This document shows positions 13,769 through 21,701 of a stretch of 64,000 bases of DNA, one piece after another (position 1 is the stretch's first letter; each line of letters begins with the position of its first letter). The stretch comes from Clostridia bacterium (GTDB taxonomy: Bacteria; Bacillota; Clostridia; RGIG6154). Location of the stretch: assembly GCA_045589295.1 (NCBI GenBank), contig JAZNOU010000012.1, positions 96,001 through 160,000 of the forward strand, written 5' to 3'. The translations under genes were made by a program, and so were the position numbers. The notes below the pieces were generated by a model. That model had not been told where the DNA came from. It worked only from the letters and a program-made list of their open reading frames with translations, and ran no database searches.

Positions 13769-15367
13769 ATGAAAAAATTATTTGCAGCACTTTTAGCATG
13801 CCTCATTGTTTTCTCAAGCTTTTTGGTATGCTTTGCAGATGGTGAGATTATTTCTGTTAAAAATGCCAAATACGAAGAAGGCATTTTAACATTTGCTATC
13901 GCAAACACCACAAAAACAAATATTTCTGATTCTATGATTGCTTTTGTATATGATGAAAACGAAGTAGAAATCATAGATTATATGGGCGGCTTTATGACCG
14001 GCGAAATTAAAGGCGGCATGGAAAAAGACGTAAAAGTTGCAGTTAACATCAAAGATTTTGATGAAAAAAATCCGCCGAAAATCGGTCTTGAATTTCAGTA
14101 CATAGAAGAAATGGGAGCGGTTGATACAACGGCTCAGCAGGGAATAAAAGCGCAGTCAATTGATAACATCTTCCCTGAAAGCACAACTCCTATGCAGGCA
14201 GTTAAAAACTTTTTAGGACAGACAGGCTTTAAAGCACTTGCTGACAATTACAAGCTTATCATTATGCTTTTAATTTCATTTGTGCTTATGTACCTGGCTA
14301 TTGTTAAACAGTTTGAACCGCTTTTGCTTTTGCCAATTGCATTTGGTATGATGCTTACAAATCTTCCTGGTGCTGGTATGTTTCACGAAGAATTGTTTGC
14401 AGATGGCCATGTTCACTGGGAGCTTTTCTCAGCATCAAACACTATTACTGTAGGACTTATTGATATTTTATACCTTGGCGTAAAGCTTGGAATTTATCCT
14501 TGCCTTATCTTCTTGGGCGTTGGTGCAATGACAGACTTCGAGCCTTTAATTGCTAATCCTAAGAGTCTTTTGTTGGGTGCAGCGGCTCAGCTTGGTATCT
14601 TTATAACATTTATTGCAGCAAGTTACTTAGGCTTTAATGCAGCAGAAGGCGGTTCAATCGGTATTATCGGCGGTGCAGACGGCCCTACAGCAACCTTTGT
14701 TACATCAAAGCTTGCACCACATCTTTTAGGACCTATCGCGGTTGCAGCTTATTCATATATGGCGCTTGTTCCTGTAATTCAGCCGCCTATTATGAAAGCT
14801 CTTACAACAAAAGCAGAAAGACAGATTGTTATGAAACCGCTTAGAAAGGTTTCAAAAACAGAAAAAATCTTGTTCCCAATTGCAGTTACAGTTTTTGTAA
14901 CACTTTTAGTACCATCTGCAGGTCCGTTAGTTGGATGCTTGATGCTTGGTAACCTTGCAAGAGAATGCGGCGTTGTTGACAGAATTTCAAAAACTGCTCA
15001 GAACGAACTTATGAACATTGTAACAATTTTCCTTGGAATTTCTGTTGGTGCAACAGCTACAGCTAACACATTCCTTTCATTTGCTACAATTAAAATCATT
15101 ATTATGGGCGTAGTGGCATTTGGTGTTGGTACAGCAGGCGGTGTGTTACTTGCTAAATTTATGAACTTGTTCTTAAAGAACAAAATCAATCCTTTAATCG
15201 GTTCTGCAGGCGTGTCTGCTGTTCCGATGGCGGCACGTGTTTCACAGACAGTAGGTCAGAAGGAAAACCCGAAAAACTTCCTTCTTATGCATGCTATGGG
15301 ACCAAACGTTGCAGGCGTTATCGGTTCTGCAATCGCAGCAGGTGTGTTAATCGCATTATTCGGTTAA
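13769..15367 (+). CDS. oadB: Na+-translocating decarboxylase beta subunit with an N-terminal secreted extension
   Basis: [34 protein letters not shown] and [13 protein letters not shown] motifs; ~140 extra N-terminal residues with a signal peptide. Confidence 0.92.
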
Positions 15368-16765: not shown

Positions 16766-16918
16766 GGAACGCTCTGCATTCCTCAAAGTGAAATTATCAT
16801 TTCACTTTGGTTACAAATTTGTCCGTTCGCACAAAGTCCCCAATGTATATTGGGGACTTTCAAATTTATAGGAATAAAATTCCAGGCACACGTCCTGGAA
16901 TTTTATGATTTTATACTT
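16766..16918. repeat. Cluster of tandem hairpins / dispersed repeat copy C (includes the likely oad terminator)
   Basis: CAAAGTGAAAT/ATTTCACTTTG, AAAGTCCCCA/TGGGGACTTT and ATAAAATTCCAGG/CCTGGAATTTTAT palindromes in series. Confidence 0.65.
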
Positions 16919-17098
16919 TTTACCTGTTGCAGTTATGTAAACAATGGTTGGTTGAACTTCTTCAACATCTTGTATTTGGGTATAAACCTCATTAGTAATA
17001 GGTTCATATGCAGCAACATTTGTAGAGGGGTTGTCACTGCAACCGATACAGGTTGTGATTATAAATAAGAGCAAAGCTATTATAAATAACTTCCGCAT
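16811..17098 (-). pseudogene. Lipoprotein with truncated Ada-like Zn-binding domain (probable pseudogene)
   Basis: AAGGAG RBS and lipobox CIGC; VYITATGKKY stops just before the expected H..C..CxxC and reads on into the palindromic repeat. Confidence 0.6.
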
Positions 17099-17295: not shown

Positions 17296-17345
17296 CTATT
17301 AGTATATCACAAACTTTTTAAAATTACAACTATAAAAATCATATC

Positions 17346-17379
17346 AAAAATAAATGGGCGAATGTATTTATTCGCCCGT
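17346..17379 (-). terminator. Terminator of the protease-partner operon
   Basis: GGGCGAAT/ATTCGCCC hairpin with A-rich flank on the plus strand. Confidence 0.75.
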
Positions 17380-17402
17380 ATGCTAAATTTTCACAAAATT
17401 AT

Positions 17403-18068
17403 TTATTCACCAAACAAAGCCTTGTTTCTTTCTTCAACTTCTTTTCTCTTTTCAAGTTGCTCTTCCTTATAATTGGGATTTGAAGCTTTAACCTCAAAAA
17501 TCTGTTTTGTTAATTCTGCTACATTTAATGTTCCTTTTTCGTTTGAGTAGGAGGACTGATTTTTCGATGCTTTATCCATAGTATATTTGCCTTGCAGGCA
17601 TCCGACTACAACATAATAGTCTTCGTCTGTTGCAACGTCGCTGTCAGACCTACAAAGAAACAGCAACACATTTTCACCTTTTTTGAATTCTGGACTTTCA
17701 CTGTTTGTATATATGGTGGTTTTATCTTCTCCACCGTCAATTCTTACAGTTACCTGCTTGTTTTTATCCTCTCCGAACAAGACATTATCTACATTGATTA
17801 TAACATCCGTCTGCAAAATATTTCGTATTTCTTTACCTCTTTTAAAATCTGAGTTACTCCACTTGCTGTCTGAAAATTCTTGTACTGTACCTTCTATTAT
17901 TAAATCTGAGTTTAAAATTAAATCAGGTACATCCATGTTTGCAATTATGCCCGACGAGTGTATTAGGATTTTACCTGTGTTTGCTTTGTATATTTTTACT
18001 CCTGTATGTGCTGCGCAAACAACTAAAATTATACATAAAACTGAGATTGTGATCTTTGCTTTTTTCAT
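17403..18068 (-). CDS. Membrane-anchored/secreted hypothetical protein, TIMP/NTR-like OB-fold pattern
   Basis: N-terminal hydrophobic segment; NSDLIIEGTV...VIINVDNVLFG...DGG...FKKGENVLLFL...QGKY; RBS overlaps the upstream protease stop. Confidence 0.7.
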   Translation of the reverse strand: MKKAKITISVLCIILVVCAAHTGVKIYKANTGKILIHSSGIIANMDVPDLILNSDLIIEGTVQEFSDSKWSNSDFKRGKEIRNILQTDVIINVDNVLFGEDKNKQVTVRIDGGEDKTTIYTNSESPEFKKGENVLLFLCRSDSDVATDEDYYVVVGCLQGKYTMDKASKNQSSYSNEKGTLNVAELTKQIFEVKASNPNYKEEQLEKRKEVEERNKALFGE

Positions 18069-18077
18069 ATTTTCCTC

Positions 18078-18659
18078 CTAATATATTGCAGCTATTCCTG
18101 CAATATCGTCGTCTGTTATAGTTCTTGTTTCACCAGGATTTAAGTAAGCGTACATAACGGCTGAACTAATATTGGTATGTTCTAAACCTAATAAATGACC
18201 TAATTCATGAGTTATTGCAGTTTGTGTATTAAATGATGTAGTTGCTGTTCCCCAGTCACAACTTACATTTATATCTATATCGGCTTCATAAATTGTTTCT
18301 GTTGTTATAGATTTTTGGATATAATAAGTCTGCATTAAATATGTTTCATTATATGATCCTCTATAACCTTTAGTTATTTCATTTGTGTTATTTTTAAGTG
18401 GGTACATTGTGTTAGAATGAGTTGCAGTATTGCGATATACTAACGCACTACTATGTGTTCCATTCCATGCAACGCATGAGTTATGGATAGCTGATAAAGT
18501 TGCGTTAGAGAAGCCGTCATAACATTTAACATAGGTAGGAACAGGGTCAAACCCTGAAGAATAACCAATATTATAAGCGTGTCCAACATATATTGTTCCA
18601 AATATTGCAATAAGCAAAATAATGATTGTTATATATAACTTGATCTTTTGCATTTTCAT
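18078..18659 (-). CDS. Secreted matrixin-like (M10) zinc metalloprotease
   Basis: Signal peptide; HELGHLLGLEH (HEXXHXXGXXH), Met-turn SAVMY, C-terminal DDIAGIAAIY as in MMP catalytic domains. Confidence 0.88.
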   Translation of the reverse strand: MKMQKIKLYITIIILLIAIFGTIYVGHAYNIGYSSGFDPVPTYVKCYDGFSNATLSAIHNSCVAWNGTHSSALVYRNTATHSNTMYPLKNNTNEITKGYRGSYNETYLMQTYYIQKSITTETIYEADIDINVSCDWGTATTSFNTQTAITHELGHLLGLEHTNISSAVMYAYLNPGETRTITDDDIAGIAAIY

Positions 18660-18745
18660 ATTTTTTTCCTGTATAAGTTTTGTTATATTTTATTATAAGC
18701 CAAGTTTTATTTATTCCACATGACACATTATCACACCTTTCAAAT

Positions 18746-18782
18746 AAAAAGCACAAGTCAATCTTTGAGACTGACTTGTGCT
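18746..18782 (-). terminator. Intrinsic terminator/attenuator upstream of the protease
   Basis: AGCACAAGTCA...TGACTTGTGCT hairpin plus T run on the minus strand. Confidence 0.8.
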
Positions 18783-18808
18783 AAATCTTATGGTTAATGT
18801 TTTTATTT

Positions 18809-19023: not shown

Positions 19024-19293
19024 TTACGGCTTACAAACTGTGCAAGGCGTAAGTCCCGCTTTGATTGCATCAGATGTTTTTATGGCAGTTATGTACCCTT
19101 TATGTCTGCAACTGTTTCTGTGGTACTGCTTGTTTCCTTTTGCCTTATAAACAATTTTGTCTGTAGTTCTTTTCCCGTTTATCCTTGTGTTATGTATTGG
19201 CGTGTTTAGTGTTACCTCGCTGTTTTTACTTTCGCAGCCTACACAGCTTGATATTGTTATCATAAGTAAAAGTAAACTTAAAACTTTTCTCAT
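19024..19293 (-). CDS. Small lipoprotein with Ada-like Zn-binding domain
   Basis: GGAGGAG RBS, lipobox CVGC, YHRNSC...AIKAGLTPCTVCKP. Confidence 0.75.
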   Translation of the reverse strand: MRKVLSLLLLMITISSCVGCESKNSEVTLNTPIHNTRINGKRTTDKIVYKAKGNKQYHRNSCRHKGYITAIKTSDAIKAGLTPCTVCKP

Positions 19294-19557: not shown

Positions 19558-20616
19558 ATGATTTTAGAAAAAACCGAAAAAAACTTAAGAGAATATGAAG
19601 AATTTGTAAAGAATTGCCCCAAAGGTCATTTTGCGCAAACGCCTATGTGGGCAAAGCTAAAGGACAACTGGAAAAATGAGATTGTTGTAAGCTATGATGA
19701 TGAGGGAAAAATCAACGGTGCAATGAGCATACTCATAAGAAAAGTGCCTGTTTTCAAAAGCACGCTTATGTATAGTCCGCGCGGACCTGTTTGCGATGTT
19801 CACAACAAAGAAATTCTTAAAAATCTTTTAGAAGGTGCGAAAACCTTAGCTAAAAAATATAATGCTTACGTTTTAAAGCTTGACCCAGATGTAAAAATCT
19901 CGGATACAGAATTTTTAGATATTATGAAAGACCTTGGGTTTAAGGTTAAGAGCGCGGGCAAAAACTTTGAAGGTATTCAGCCTAAATTCGTATTTCGCCT
20001 TGATGTTGAGGGAAAAACCGAGGACGAAATCTTTGCTGCATTTCATAACAAAACCAGATATAATATAAGAGTGGCTATCAAAAACGGAGTAACCACTTCA
20101 ATCGGCACAAGAGATGATTTAAAAAGATTTCACGAAATTATGGTTGAAACAGGTGCACGTGACGAATTTGTTATTCGCCCGCTGGAATACTTTGAAAAAA
20201 TGTATGATGCAATGGCGCCGACTGATAATTTAAGGCTTTATCTTGCACATTATGACGGAAAAATAATTTCTGGAACAATCGCTATAAAATACGGCGATAA
20301 GGTATGGTATCTTTATGGTGCAAGTTCTAACAGCTATCGTAATGTTATGCCAAACTACCTTTTGCAGTGGGAAATGATTAAGTGGGCAATAGAACAAAAA
20401 TGCAGAATTTATGATTTCCGCGGTGTTTCGGGCGATCTGAGCGAAGACAATCCGCTTTATGGACTTTACAGATTTAAAAAAGGTTTTTCGGGTGAATTTA
20501 CCGAGTTTGCAGGAGATATTGACTATGCTTTCAACCCTTTGATGAAGCTGATGGTCGAAAAAGGTGAACCTGTTTTCAGAAAAGTTAGAAGAAAGGTAAT
20601 GCTTTTAAAGAAATGA
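19558..20616 (+). CDS. FemAB/FemX/MurM-family peptidoglycan bridge aminoacyltransferase
   Basis: HFAQTPMWAKLK, YSPRGPV, KTRYNIR, YLYGASS, NYLLQW, YDFRG and GLYRFKKGF motifs. Confidence 0.92.
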   Translation: MILEKTEKNLREYEEFVKNCPKGHFAQTPMWAKLKDNWKNEIVVSYDDEGKINGAMSILIRKVPVFKSTLMYSPRGPVCDVHNKEILKNLLEGAKTLAKKYNAYVLKLDPDVKISDTEFLDIMKDLGFKVKSAGKNFEGIQPKFVFRLDVEGKTEDEIFAAFHNKTRYNIRVAIKNGVTTSIGTRDDLKRFHEIMVETGARDEFVIRPLEYFEKMYDAMAPTDNLRLYLAHYDGKIISGTIAIKYGDKVWYLYGASSNSYRNVMPNYLLQWEMIKWAIEQKCRIYDFRGVSGDLSEDNPLYGLYRFKKGFSGEFTEFAGDIDYAFNPLMKLMVEKGEPVFRKVRRKVMLLKK

Positions 20617-21701
20617 TTAAATACGTTGTTGATAAAGATATTTTAAGAGAAAATATAAGCATTATAAAATCCCTTGCAGGCACAACTCCTGTAATTGCAG
20701 TTTTAAAATGTAACGGCTACGGTTTGGGAACAGTTGAGCTTGCCAAGTTTTTGCTTTATCGTGGGATTGAGATTTTTGGCGTTTCTGATTTGAGTGAGGC
20801 GCTCACTTTAAGAAAAGCGGGCATTTTAAATGAAATAATTCTGCTTTCTTCAAATGCAGTTCCTGAGGACAACGAAAAGATTGTTGAAAATGATATTATA
20901 GCAACAGTCGGCTCAACAGATGCGGCAAAGGCGCTTGATGAGGTAGGCAAAAAGCTTGGCAAAACACCAAAGGCGCATATTAAAATTAATACAGGCATGG
21001 GAAGATATGGCTTTAACTGCGAGGATTTATTGTGGGTTAACGAGCTTAAAAAAACCGAGATTGATTTTTGCGGAACATTTACACATTTCTCGTTTTCTTT
21101 TTCGAAAGATGAAAAAGATGTGTCAAATCAGCTTGCAAAGTTTAAGACATGCATTAAAAAATTAAGACAAGCAGGTTTTGAAACAGGTGTTGTTCATGCT
21201 GCAAATTCACACGCGTTTTTAAAATATCCCAAAACCCATCTGGATGCCGTGCGTGTTGGCTCTGCATTTTTGGGCAGAGTAAATGGCGCTAAGGCATACG
21301 GACTTAAACCTGTCGGCTTTTTAGAAAGCAAAGTAAGCGATATAAATCACCTGAAAAAAGGCGAAAATATCGGATACGGAAACACATATAAAGCAAAAAG
21401 AGATATGAAAATTGCAATTGTTCCTGTTGGGTTTTCTAACGGATATGGAACAGAAAAATCAAGAGATACCTTTCGCATAAGGGATATTTTAAGGTATATT
21501 TTAAGTGACATTATCCCTAAGAAAAAGCATGTTAAGATAAATGGCAATGCCTATAAACTTGTTGGAAGGGTTGCAACGCTTAATGTTATTGCCGATGTAA
21601 CGGGTTCTGATGTAAAGCCAGGCGATAAAGTTGTTTTAAGCGCAAATCCGCTTCTTGTAGATTCCGGCGTGGAAAGAGAATTCAGGGGACTTGACTTGTA
21701 A
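20613..21701 (+). CDS. Alanine racemase-family PLP enzyme (atypical)
   Basis: AVLKCNGYGLG PLP-lysine motif, HIKINTGMGRYG, FTHF, AANS, VRVG, IGYG; ATGA overlap with the fem gene. Confidence 0.85.
   Translation: MIKYVVDKDILRENISIIKSLAGTTPVIAVLKCNGYGLGTVELAKFLLYRGIEIFGVSDLSEALTLRKAGILNEIILLSSNAVPEDNEKIVENDIIATVGSTDAAKALDEVGKKLGKTPKAHIKINTGMGRYGFNCEDLLWVNELKKTEIDFCGTFTHFSFSFSKDEKDVSNQLAKFKTCIKKLRQAGFETGVVHAANSHAFLKYPKTHLDAVRVGSAFLGRVNGAKAYGLKPVGFLESKVSDINHLKKGENIGYGNTYKAKRDMKIAIVPVGFSNGYGTEKSRDTFRIRDILRYILSDIIPKKKHVKINGNAYKLVGRVATLNVIADVTGSDVKPGDKVVLSANPLLVDSGVEREFRGLDL

Follow-up and report, generated by a model that had tools for sequence, protein, structure and literature searches.

A two-gene locus of a Clostridia bacterium coding for a propeptide-less matrixin and a membrane-tethered partner with a predicted NTR/TIMP-like fold

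We examined a 64,000-nucleotide stretch of DNA from a Clostridia bacterium (GenBank assembly GCA_045589295.1, contig JAZNOU010000012.1, positions 96,001 to 160,000 of the forward strand; this whole stretch is called the window and is numbered from its first letter), in which a gene for a matrixin-type metalloprotease is followed by a gene for a protein that recalls the tissue inhibitors of metalloproteases (TIMPs). The reading that we consider probable, with some reserve, is that a secreted matrixin without a prodomain is held and blocked at the cell surface by a tethered partner of TIMP-like fold, and that the partner is probably cut and released by the enzyme. The genes, their families, the fold of the partner, the genomic linkage of the two genes and a confident predicted interface were all shown in silico. 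This kind of pair has already been published for Listeria and has been little studied; the pair in the window adds a member.

Both open reading frames (ORFs) of the original prediction were confirmed on the minus strand, to which all coordinates given below without a strand refer. The protease ORF (18078-18659) encodes 193 residues, and judged from its sequence the product is a secreted, minimal, propeptide-less matrixin (family M10). The signal peptide, the bare catalytic domain of the matrix metalloprotease (MMP) type and the lack of a cysteine switch that had been read from the letters alone were all found again. The 28-residue signal sequence (residues 1-28, 18576..18659) ends in VGHA/YNIGY, the cleavage site GHA/YNI being deduced from the sequence, and the catalytic domain (residues 29-193, 18081..18575) begins directly after it. 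This domain was recognized by the Pfam profile Peptidase_M10 (PF00413; 52 bits against a cut-off of 24, E = 9.4e-14), by its match to karilysin and by its AlphaFold2 model. It carries the zinc-binding motif HELGHLLGLEH (residues 151-161, 18177..18209) with Glu152 as the catalytic base, the Met-turn AVMY (residues 167-170), which aligns with the karilysin Met-turn (SALMY), and the C-terminus DDDIAGIAAIY. The PF00413 match spans residues 104-193 (profile positions 70-158 of 159), and ~75 residues remain between the signal and the match for the first 69 profile positions. A propeptide has no room, because the 165 residues from the cleavage site to the C-terminus are close in number to the karilysin catalytic-domain chains (166-167 residues); the cysteine-switch motif PRCGxPD is absent from the protease sequence. 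A cysteine-switch propeptide is a defining feature of typical MMP zymogens and not of the catalytic family itself.

By sequence, Tannerella forsythia karilysin is the closest solved relative of the protease (E = 3.4e-8), ahead of human MMPs. The AlphaFold2 model of the protease alone was of moderate quality (predicted local distance difference test score, pLDDT, 69.8), and its S-loop zinc/calcium region (residues 81-126) was short and of low confidence. In Foldseek the top match of this model was karilysin (E = 1e-7), and the best 50 matches were all karilysin or MMP catalytic domains. The gene is the sole M10 gene of its genome (1.54 Mb, 97% complete). Thirteen relatives were found at E<=1e-3, all of ~180-230 residues and with the same signal/AY.I junction, among them named 'matrixin family metalloprotease' entries of Paenibacillus and Tumebacillus. 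The A-Y signal junction and the Met-turn methionine Met169 (18153..18155) are kept across the 14 relatives of alignment A2. The zinc motif of relatives is more variable: P0178 and P0180 are without the third histidine, as are two of the paired proteases described below, and L026 has HELGHALFAGD.

The partner ORF (17403-18068) encodes 221 residues. It had been described as exported or anchored, with the motifs NSDLIIEGTV, VIINVDNVLFG and GENVLLFL; the three motifs are present, and a hydrophobic N-terminal helix (residues 3-21, 18006..18062) may act as a signal peptide or as a signal anchor. At this place several relatives have a lipobox, which the helix of this partner lacks. Behind the helix lie the segment LIHSSGIIANM (residues 35-45, 17934..17966), which was singled out by the complex contacts, a conserved motif and the start of the TIMP alignments, then the predicted oligonucleotide/oligosaccharide-binding (OB) domain of NTR/TIMP-like fold (residues 46-198, 17475..17933), and a C-terminal helix with its tail (residues 200-221, 17406..17471), delimited by alignment, model and complex. 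In alignment A1 a conserved strand, x-I-x-I-x-G-[ILVM]-[IM]-[PA], follows the N-terminal hydrophobic helix or lipobox, the domain has the invariants ILxSxxIxGxV, SxW, QTD, VR..G, P.F, LFLxR and T.E.Y, and the C-terminal helix ends in N-x-x-LFGE.

Sequence searches with the partner led to no annotated family. A Pfam and NCBIfam scan gave no TIMP or NTR match at E<=1, with sub-threshold chance matches only, and a PDB sequence search gave nothing relevant (two chance Tic22 matches at E 0.2). Neither the 128-sequence family profile A3 nor a 30-residue motif piece of the partner found any PDB chain at E<=10; the original prediction had likened the motif NSDLIIEGTV to a segment given for human TIMP-1, NSDLVIRAKFV. 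The family is without any Pfam or NCBIfam model; the cluster members that bore names, apart from the Paenibacillus and Tumebacillus matrixins, were entered as 'hypothetical protein'. A word-indexed search gave 20 relatives at E<=1e-3, and exhaustive HMMER searching of 1.84 billion representatives gave 565 clusters (defined at 50% identity) at E<=1e-3 and 94 at E<=1e-10; a further search with profile A3 added only 6 new close relatives. The partner domain appears to be a general extracytoplasmic module. It is fused to a zf-HC2 anti-sigma N-terminus and a transmembrane segment in P0104 (P0084 looks similar) and to a copper amine oxidase N-terminal domain in P0051, it occurs as tandem repeats in P0036 and P0037, and two tandem paralogues of the family are found at L014:3848-5298, where no protease is nearby.

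The AlphaFold2 model of the partner, built on alignment A1, reached a pLDDT of 84.5 and a predicted template modelling score of 0.78. Against the PDB, Foldseek placed agrin NtA first (E = 1.2e-4); TIMP-2 was found at E = 1.2e-3, and after it the PCOLCE NTR domain, TIMP-1, TIMP-3 and complement C345C domains. VIA-align, which is independent of Foldseek and was run over 48,161 chains, returned NTR modules at all of ranks 1-8: agrin NtA (1jb3; Z 10.3, root-mean-square deviation 3.1, 117 aligned), N-TIMP-3 (3cki_B; Z 9.4, root-mean-square deviation 2.9, 118 aligned), PCOLCE NTR (Z 8.4), C4 (7.9), TIMP-1 (7.7), meteorin NTR (7.4), C5 (7.3) and C3 (7.3). Generic OB folds (PriB, SSB, MCM) ranked only below the NTR modules. 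Both TIMP alignments start with model residue 40 paired to TIMP residue 1. The nearest named ESM Atlas clusters were TIMP, NtA and NTR families at 0.76-0.82, which we take as a lead only. The TIMP/NTR OB-fold call of the original prediction had been made by eye, with Foldseek suggested as a check; it is supported in the predicted model, because NTR/TIMP modules top both Foldseek and VIA-align. The evidence supports an NTR/TIMP-like OB fold as modelled, the likeness being in fold and not in detectable sequence.

The input to the complex prediction was the mature form of the protease (residues 29-193, alignment A2), the partner with its anchor removed (residues 21-221, alignment A1) and one zinc. 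The complex score was 0.95 in all 3 runs, and the best of 3 controls reached 0.00; a mark of 0.95 was reached by 116 of 157 solved complexes and by 2 of 215 mismatched pairs. The runs shared at least 96% of their contacts, with a pLDDT of at least 88 for the partner and of 94-95 for the protease chain, and the interface comprised 141-143 confident contacts. Partner residues 35-45 contact the upper-rim strand (107-112), Ala148, His151, Glu152, His155 and the S1' wall (171-175); residues 38-44 were placed in the cleft, with Ile41 nearest His151, Glu152 and Ala148. Along the rim, residues 38/39 contact 111/112, residue 41 contacts 107-110 and residues 42-43 contact 107-108; since the partner index rises while the rim-strand index falls, the strand is predicted to lie antiparallel to the rim in a substrate-like manner. 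Further interface was formed by OB-domain residues 75-84, 139-144 and 153-157, and by the C-terminal tail (204-221) with protease residues 47-54. The predicted contacts alone lead us to infer Gly40-Ile41 as P1-P1'. Occlusion of the active-site cleft by the partner, for which a complex prediction had been proposed, is thus supported in silico.

A mechanism can be proposed on the basis of this pose. The partner would dock onto the protease, its pre-domain strand (residues 38-44, SSG-IIAN) lying in the cleft in the substrate direction with Ile41 at the S1' side by His151 and Glu152, and the docked partner would thereby retain a cleft-blocked enzyme at the cell surface. The enzyme would most likely cut the partner at or near Gly40-Ile41 and free the TIMP-like domain from its anchor, as in the Listeria Mtz-Tim pair. 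Because partner residue 40 is paired with TIMP residue 1, the new N-terminus would fall at the position of the zinc-chelating Cys1 of TIMP, and the freed domain might then remain attached as a product-type, TIMP-like inhibitor. What we infer from the work concerns binding in vivo, the site of cleavage, the inhibition and the role in the cell; the partner may be an inhibitor, a protease-released substrate or effector, or both. In a bolder version of this mechanism, which we regard as doubtful, the partner would be a self-arming TIMP: after the cut at Gly40-Ile41 the new alpha-amino terminus would chelate the catalytic zinc and convert a substrate into a tight product-type inhibitor. If that were true, the operon would, given how widely such pairs and fusions are spread, be a prokaryotic prototype, and possibly an ancestor, of the animal MMP-TIMP system.

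We surveyed 399 scored genomes of the class for the protease (threshold E<=1e-15). Six hold it, five of them besides the genome of the window. A partner-family gene lies directly downstream on the same strand in 4/4 assessable protease relatives (L023-L026), and the linkage is kept though the proteins are very diverged (partner E 5e-11 in L025 and 1.7e-22 in L026). In the fifth genome (G011; L022 and L007) the pair is divided between two contigs: the protease ORF ends 132 bases short of one contig end, and the last 49 partner residues open another contig. There seems to be a repeat or an assembly break inside the partner gene of this genome.

A more distant survey covered 79 metagenomic loci of remote M10 proteases, with frames taken from stop to stop and not as gene calls. 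The partner domain was present at 16 of them, in an abutting or overlapping ORF on the same strand at 13 and in the same open frame at 3. This count is a floor, because no more than 22 of the 79 loci extend for at least 700 bp in both directions from the M10 frame. In the abutting cases the partner was upstream of M10 in 11 and downstream in 2; in the same-frame cases the domain was N-terminal to M10 in L061 and L076 and C-terminal in L080. One of the upstream cases, L063, carries two tandem partner-M10 pairs. A Pfam scan of 20 long family members showed 2 of them to be fusions as well: in P0121, PKD domains precede M10 (656-730), after which comes the partner domain (748-892), and P0093 has M10 (90-162) followed by the partner domain (184-330). 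The domain was found within 4 kb at none (0/76) of the viral-contig loci with M10-like zinc motifs (query A2; these loci are C-terminal zinc-motif matches only), so it does not accompany zincin motifs in general. No partner or protease relatives were found in the phage (tblastn, 50,697 records), plasmid or viral collections searched, and tblastn with the Tumebacillus protease relative against the same phage records gave no match. A gene-neighbourhood survey for co-occurrence or fusion had been recommended with the original prediction, and both were encountered. Adjacency, fusions and recurrence in distant lineages support a functional link between the partner and matrixins.

In the window, the protease stop codon TAG (18080-18078) overlaps the partner Shine-Dalgarno sequence AGGAGG (18079-18074; the overlapping element spans 18074..18080), and the partner ATG is at 18068. 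Upstream of the pair, a terminator-like hairpin (18750..18782) with a 15-pair stem and then a T run marks the 5' boundary and also ends a preceding small lipoprotein gene; an intrinsic-terminator-like hairpin (17356..17377) follows the partner and ends the two-gene unit. Two terminator-like sites were found, against 0.5 expected from shuffles. Because hairpins bracket the pair and the stop overlaps the ribosome-binding site, the protease and partner genes are read from the DNA as a two-gene, translationally coupled transcription unit, in keeping with the coupling and the shared terminator noticed earlier. Among metatranscriptomes, a single run gave a 232-letter contig that matches 18474-18704 at 95-99% likeness, which does not by itself show transcription of the operon; the parts outside this contig are uninformative. 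DNA near-identical to 17300-18800 is present in animal gut metagenome runs of several studies, and one contig (run X1) bridges both genes.

The pair has housekeeping neighbours, namely oxaloacetate decarboxylase beta and alpha, a FemAB-family gene, alanine racemase and an AraC regulator, and neither an integrase nor a phage gene was seen. In the relative L010 the pair again adjoins an oxaloacetate decarboxylase alpha gene. The oxaloacetate decarboxylase beta gene of the window (13769-15367, plus strand) has an extra N-terminal extension of ~160 residues with a signal-like start, its Pfam match beginning at residue 164. Upstream of the pair on the opposite strand, the FemAB-family gene overlaps the alanine-racemase gene by 4 bases (19558-21701, plus strand). 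These two genes provide a cell-wall cross-bridge context, which may be coincidence, but an action on the cell wall is reported for the Listeria pair. Small lipoprotein-like ORFs stand on either side of the pair, one of 89 residues (19024-19293) and one of 95 residues (16811-17098). The 89-residue product has a Cys-rich tail (CRHKG...CTVCKP) with a weak Ada zinc-binding match (E 0.028).

Several observations weigh against the idea of a matrixin blocked by its own tethered inhibitor. In the order, 7 of 18 genomes hold the partner, and at the 15 assessable partner loci (two edge fragments set aside, duplicate records counted once) the protease is upstream at only five (L001, L009, L010, L011 and L017), the remaining ten being without it. 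PF00413 was found over its cut-off in none of five orphan-partner genomes (82-96% complete), one of which has a 17.5-bit match with an internal stop. In a tree of 19 partner genes (8 paired, three of these found through the protease, and 11 orphan; midpoint root only), paired and orphan partners are interleaved; parsimony requires 4 changes, and branches with good support impose at least 2 of them. The sister of the window's partner is an orphan from its own genus. Most orphan partners, too, retain the cleft-binding motif. Catalytic or zinc residues are altered in some paired proteases, the catalytic Glu being replaced by Asp in L009 (HDIGH) and the third His being lost in L017 (HELGHLLGLDE) and L024 (HEIGHLLGLGEE), and relatives with an altered motif retain the partner gene wherever the locus is known. 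The partner has no sequence-level match to TIMP, NTR or any PDB chain, and in alignment A1 Cys-X-Cys and conserved disulfides are absent, as had been cautioned for the N-terminal Cys-X-Cys: the only cysteines of its mature part are Cys139 and Cys157, and across 21 relatives neither is conserved. The complex score expresses how confident the model is in its own prediction and is not an affinity, the use of our own alignments and of a riding zinc departs from the conditions under which the complex tool was calibrated, and MMP-TIMP complexes have already been solved, so that the pass may partly be recall of a like complex. The predicted substrate-like pose would fit an inhibitor and a plain substrate alike.

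The protease is always accompanied by the partner, and the partner survives without the protease. In view of the orphan loci, the genomes with no M10 over the Pfam cut-off and the interleaved tree, the partner has a life without a cognate protease. The orphans, their retained motif and the altered proteases speak against a purely cognate inhibitor or chaperone; they fit a partner with a function of its own or one that protects against foreign proteases. Of the module proposed at the outset, a protease with a cognate inhibitor, trans-chaperone or immunity protein, the functional link and the predicted occupancy of the cleft stand, and a strictly cognate role is made less likely by the frequent persistence of the partner in genomes with no M10 over the cut-off. 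Of the outcomes named beforehand as refuting it, namely an unrelated fold, a failure to co-occur with matrixins and a partner that neither binds the protease nor alters its activity, none emerged at the level of computation, which gave a predicted NTR fold, adjacency and a predicted interface.

The same observations bear on the alternative that the protease is a sheddase and the partner an effector: the tethered partner would be inactive, the protease would free it, and the freed domain would act on the cell wall or autolysins with no regulation of the protease. We regard this as a serious but doubtful alternative. Partners that persist, conserved, without a protease are what an own function would lead one to expect, the predicted pose is substrate-like with a G-I bond at the catalytic site, and the pair lies beside the FemAB and alanine-racemase cell-wall genes, perhaps by coincidence. 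The phenotypes described for Listeria need Tim together with catalytically active Mtz (PMC8235301). However, an interface of 141-143 contacts that includes the OB domain and the tail exceeds what a cleavage site needs, fusion of the domain to either side of M10 fits a regulatory or prodomain-like role better, and pairs are retained where catalytic or zinc residues of the protease are altered.

A somewhat less likely explanation, which we consider improbable, is self-protection: an outward-acting protease, used as a weapon or for nutrients, from which the tethered partner shields the producer, with orphans guarding against the proteases of neighbours. A protease always found with the partner and partners also found alone make the usual toxin/orphan-immunity pattern, and the partner is membrane-tethered. 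A precedent exists in potempin A (PotA), a membrane-anchored OB-fold inhibitor encoded beside the karilysin gene and described as protecting the cell surface (PMC9890683). However, the neighbours of the pair are housekeeping genes with no competition-system genes nearby, and PotA is not among the best 50 fold matches of the partner. This explanation also overlaps the reading of a surface-held, blocked matrixin more than it excludes it.

It is very unlikely that the partner is only a trans-acting prodomain or chaperone that folds or stabilises the matrixin. The protease is without a propeptide, L061 and L076 have the partner domain where a prodomain would sit, and the pLDDT of the protease was 69.8 alone against 94-95 in the complex, a weak comparison given that the methods differ. 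A dedicated chaperone would not be expected to persist once its client is gone, yet orphans make up 10 of the 15 partner loci and the genes are interleaved on the tree; other fusions (P0093, P0121, L080) put the domain C-terminal to M10. That the two genes are chance neighbours and functionally unrelated is scarcely credible: most close partner relatives are without the protease, but adjacency is kept in every assessable protease relative together with translational coupling, the pairing recurs in distant lineages and as fusions, none of the 76 viral-contig M10-like loci has the domain, and the complex prediction passes its controls.

The TIMPs are usually regarded as animal inventions, and among endogenous bacterial matrixin inhibitors with a solved structure in print we found only potempin A. 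The partner belongs to an unannotated family of 565 clusters that recurs beside or fused to prokaryotic matrixins. Experimental work on this kind of partner is limited to one study, in Listeria, whose account, as far as it is drawn on here, includes neither a structure nor an inhibition assay. The value of the find lies in the size of this unannotated family and in the specific, testable hypothesis that the predicted complex yields: a strand in the cleft, a bond that is cut and a TIMP-like product. The partner could explain the latency of a propeptide-less matrixin, and the family merits its own name and a profile for annotation.

Among known systems, the vertebrate TIMPs (MEROPS I35, PF00965) and the NTR module (PF01759) share with the partner the predicted OB barrel with flanking helices and a matrixin as genetic partner, and the segment predicted to enter the cleft coincides with the one that aligns with the TIMP N-terminus. 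The differences are that sequence similarity is lacking, that the partner is without Cys1-X-Cys3 and conserved disulfides, that its cleft segment is internal (~20 residues past the anchor), and that it ends in an additional helix and the LFGE tail. The partner segment would cross both non-primed and primed subsites, whereas TIMP uses a free N-terminus to occupy the primed side. Inh/APRin are periplasmic inhibitors co-encoded with a serralysin-type metzincin, and their N-terminal segment enters the cleft; they differ in their eight-stranded barrel fold, in the protease subfamily (M10B) and in type I secretion. Serralysin and alkaline protease with co-encoded inhibitors are also mentioned in the discussion of the Listeria study (PMC8235301).

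Potempin A, an outer-membrane OB-fold lipoprotein whose gene lies next to that of karilysin, occupies both the primed and the non-primed subsites and protects the cell surface (PMC9890683). The likeness is that a bacterial matrixin, in this case the closest solved relative of our protease, is encoded beside a membrane-anchored OB-fold protein. The differences in the same account are that the potempin gene is upstream of the peptidase gene, that PotA is a lipoprotein of 98-132 residues with a five-stranded OB fold called unrelated to TIMPs by the authors, and that karilysin has a propeptide and a C-terminal domain. PotA does not appear among the best 50 partner matches in Foldseek or VIA-align, but a family outside these lists may still be related.

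The closest counterpart is the Mtz-Tim pair of Listeria monocytogenes (LMRG_00713/LMRG_00714; Boichis et al., 2021; PMC8235301). Mtz (LMRG_00713) is described as a secreted metzincin with the extended zinc motif HExxHxxGxxH/D and a Met-turn; it strips ~50 N-terminal residues off the lipoprotein Tim, and the E136A variant does not (PMC8235301). The shortened Tim is reported to score better as a TIMP, and the released fragment, alone or with Mtz, to sensitise cells to lysins and penicillin (PMC8235301). Mtz-Tim-like pairs were noted across Gram-positive bacteria including Clostridium, and the authors state that they found no earlier record of a bacterial TIMP-like protein (PMC8235301). In both systems a small secreted metzincin, in Listeria one for which that account describes no prodomain, is followed directly by the gene of a membrane-tethered TIMP-fold protein, and the experimental ~50-residue cut of Tim agrees in position with the 40/41 site suggested by our model. 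Tim is a lipoprotein (lipobox LTAC), whereas the window's partner has an anchor helix and several of its relatives have a lipobox; the Listeria genes are described in a prophage or mobile-element context with a cI/cro-like switch, whereas the window's pair lies among housekeeping genes; and the C-terminal LFGE tail is a feature of the window's partner. We concluded that the pair in the window may be regarded as a further Mtz-Tim-type pair, likened by description and not by sequence to Mtz and Tim.

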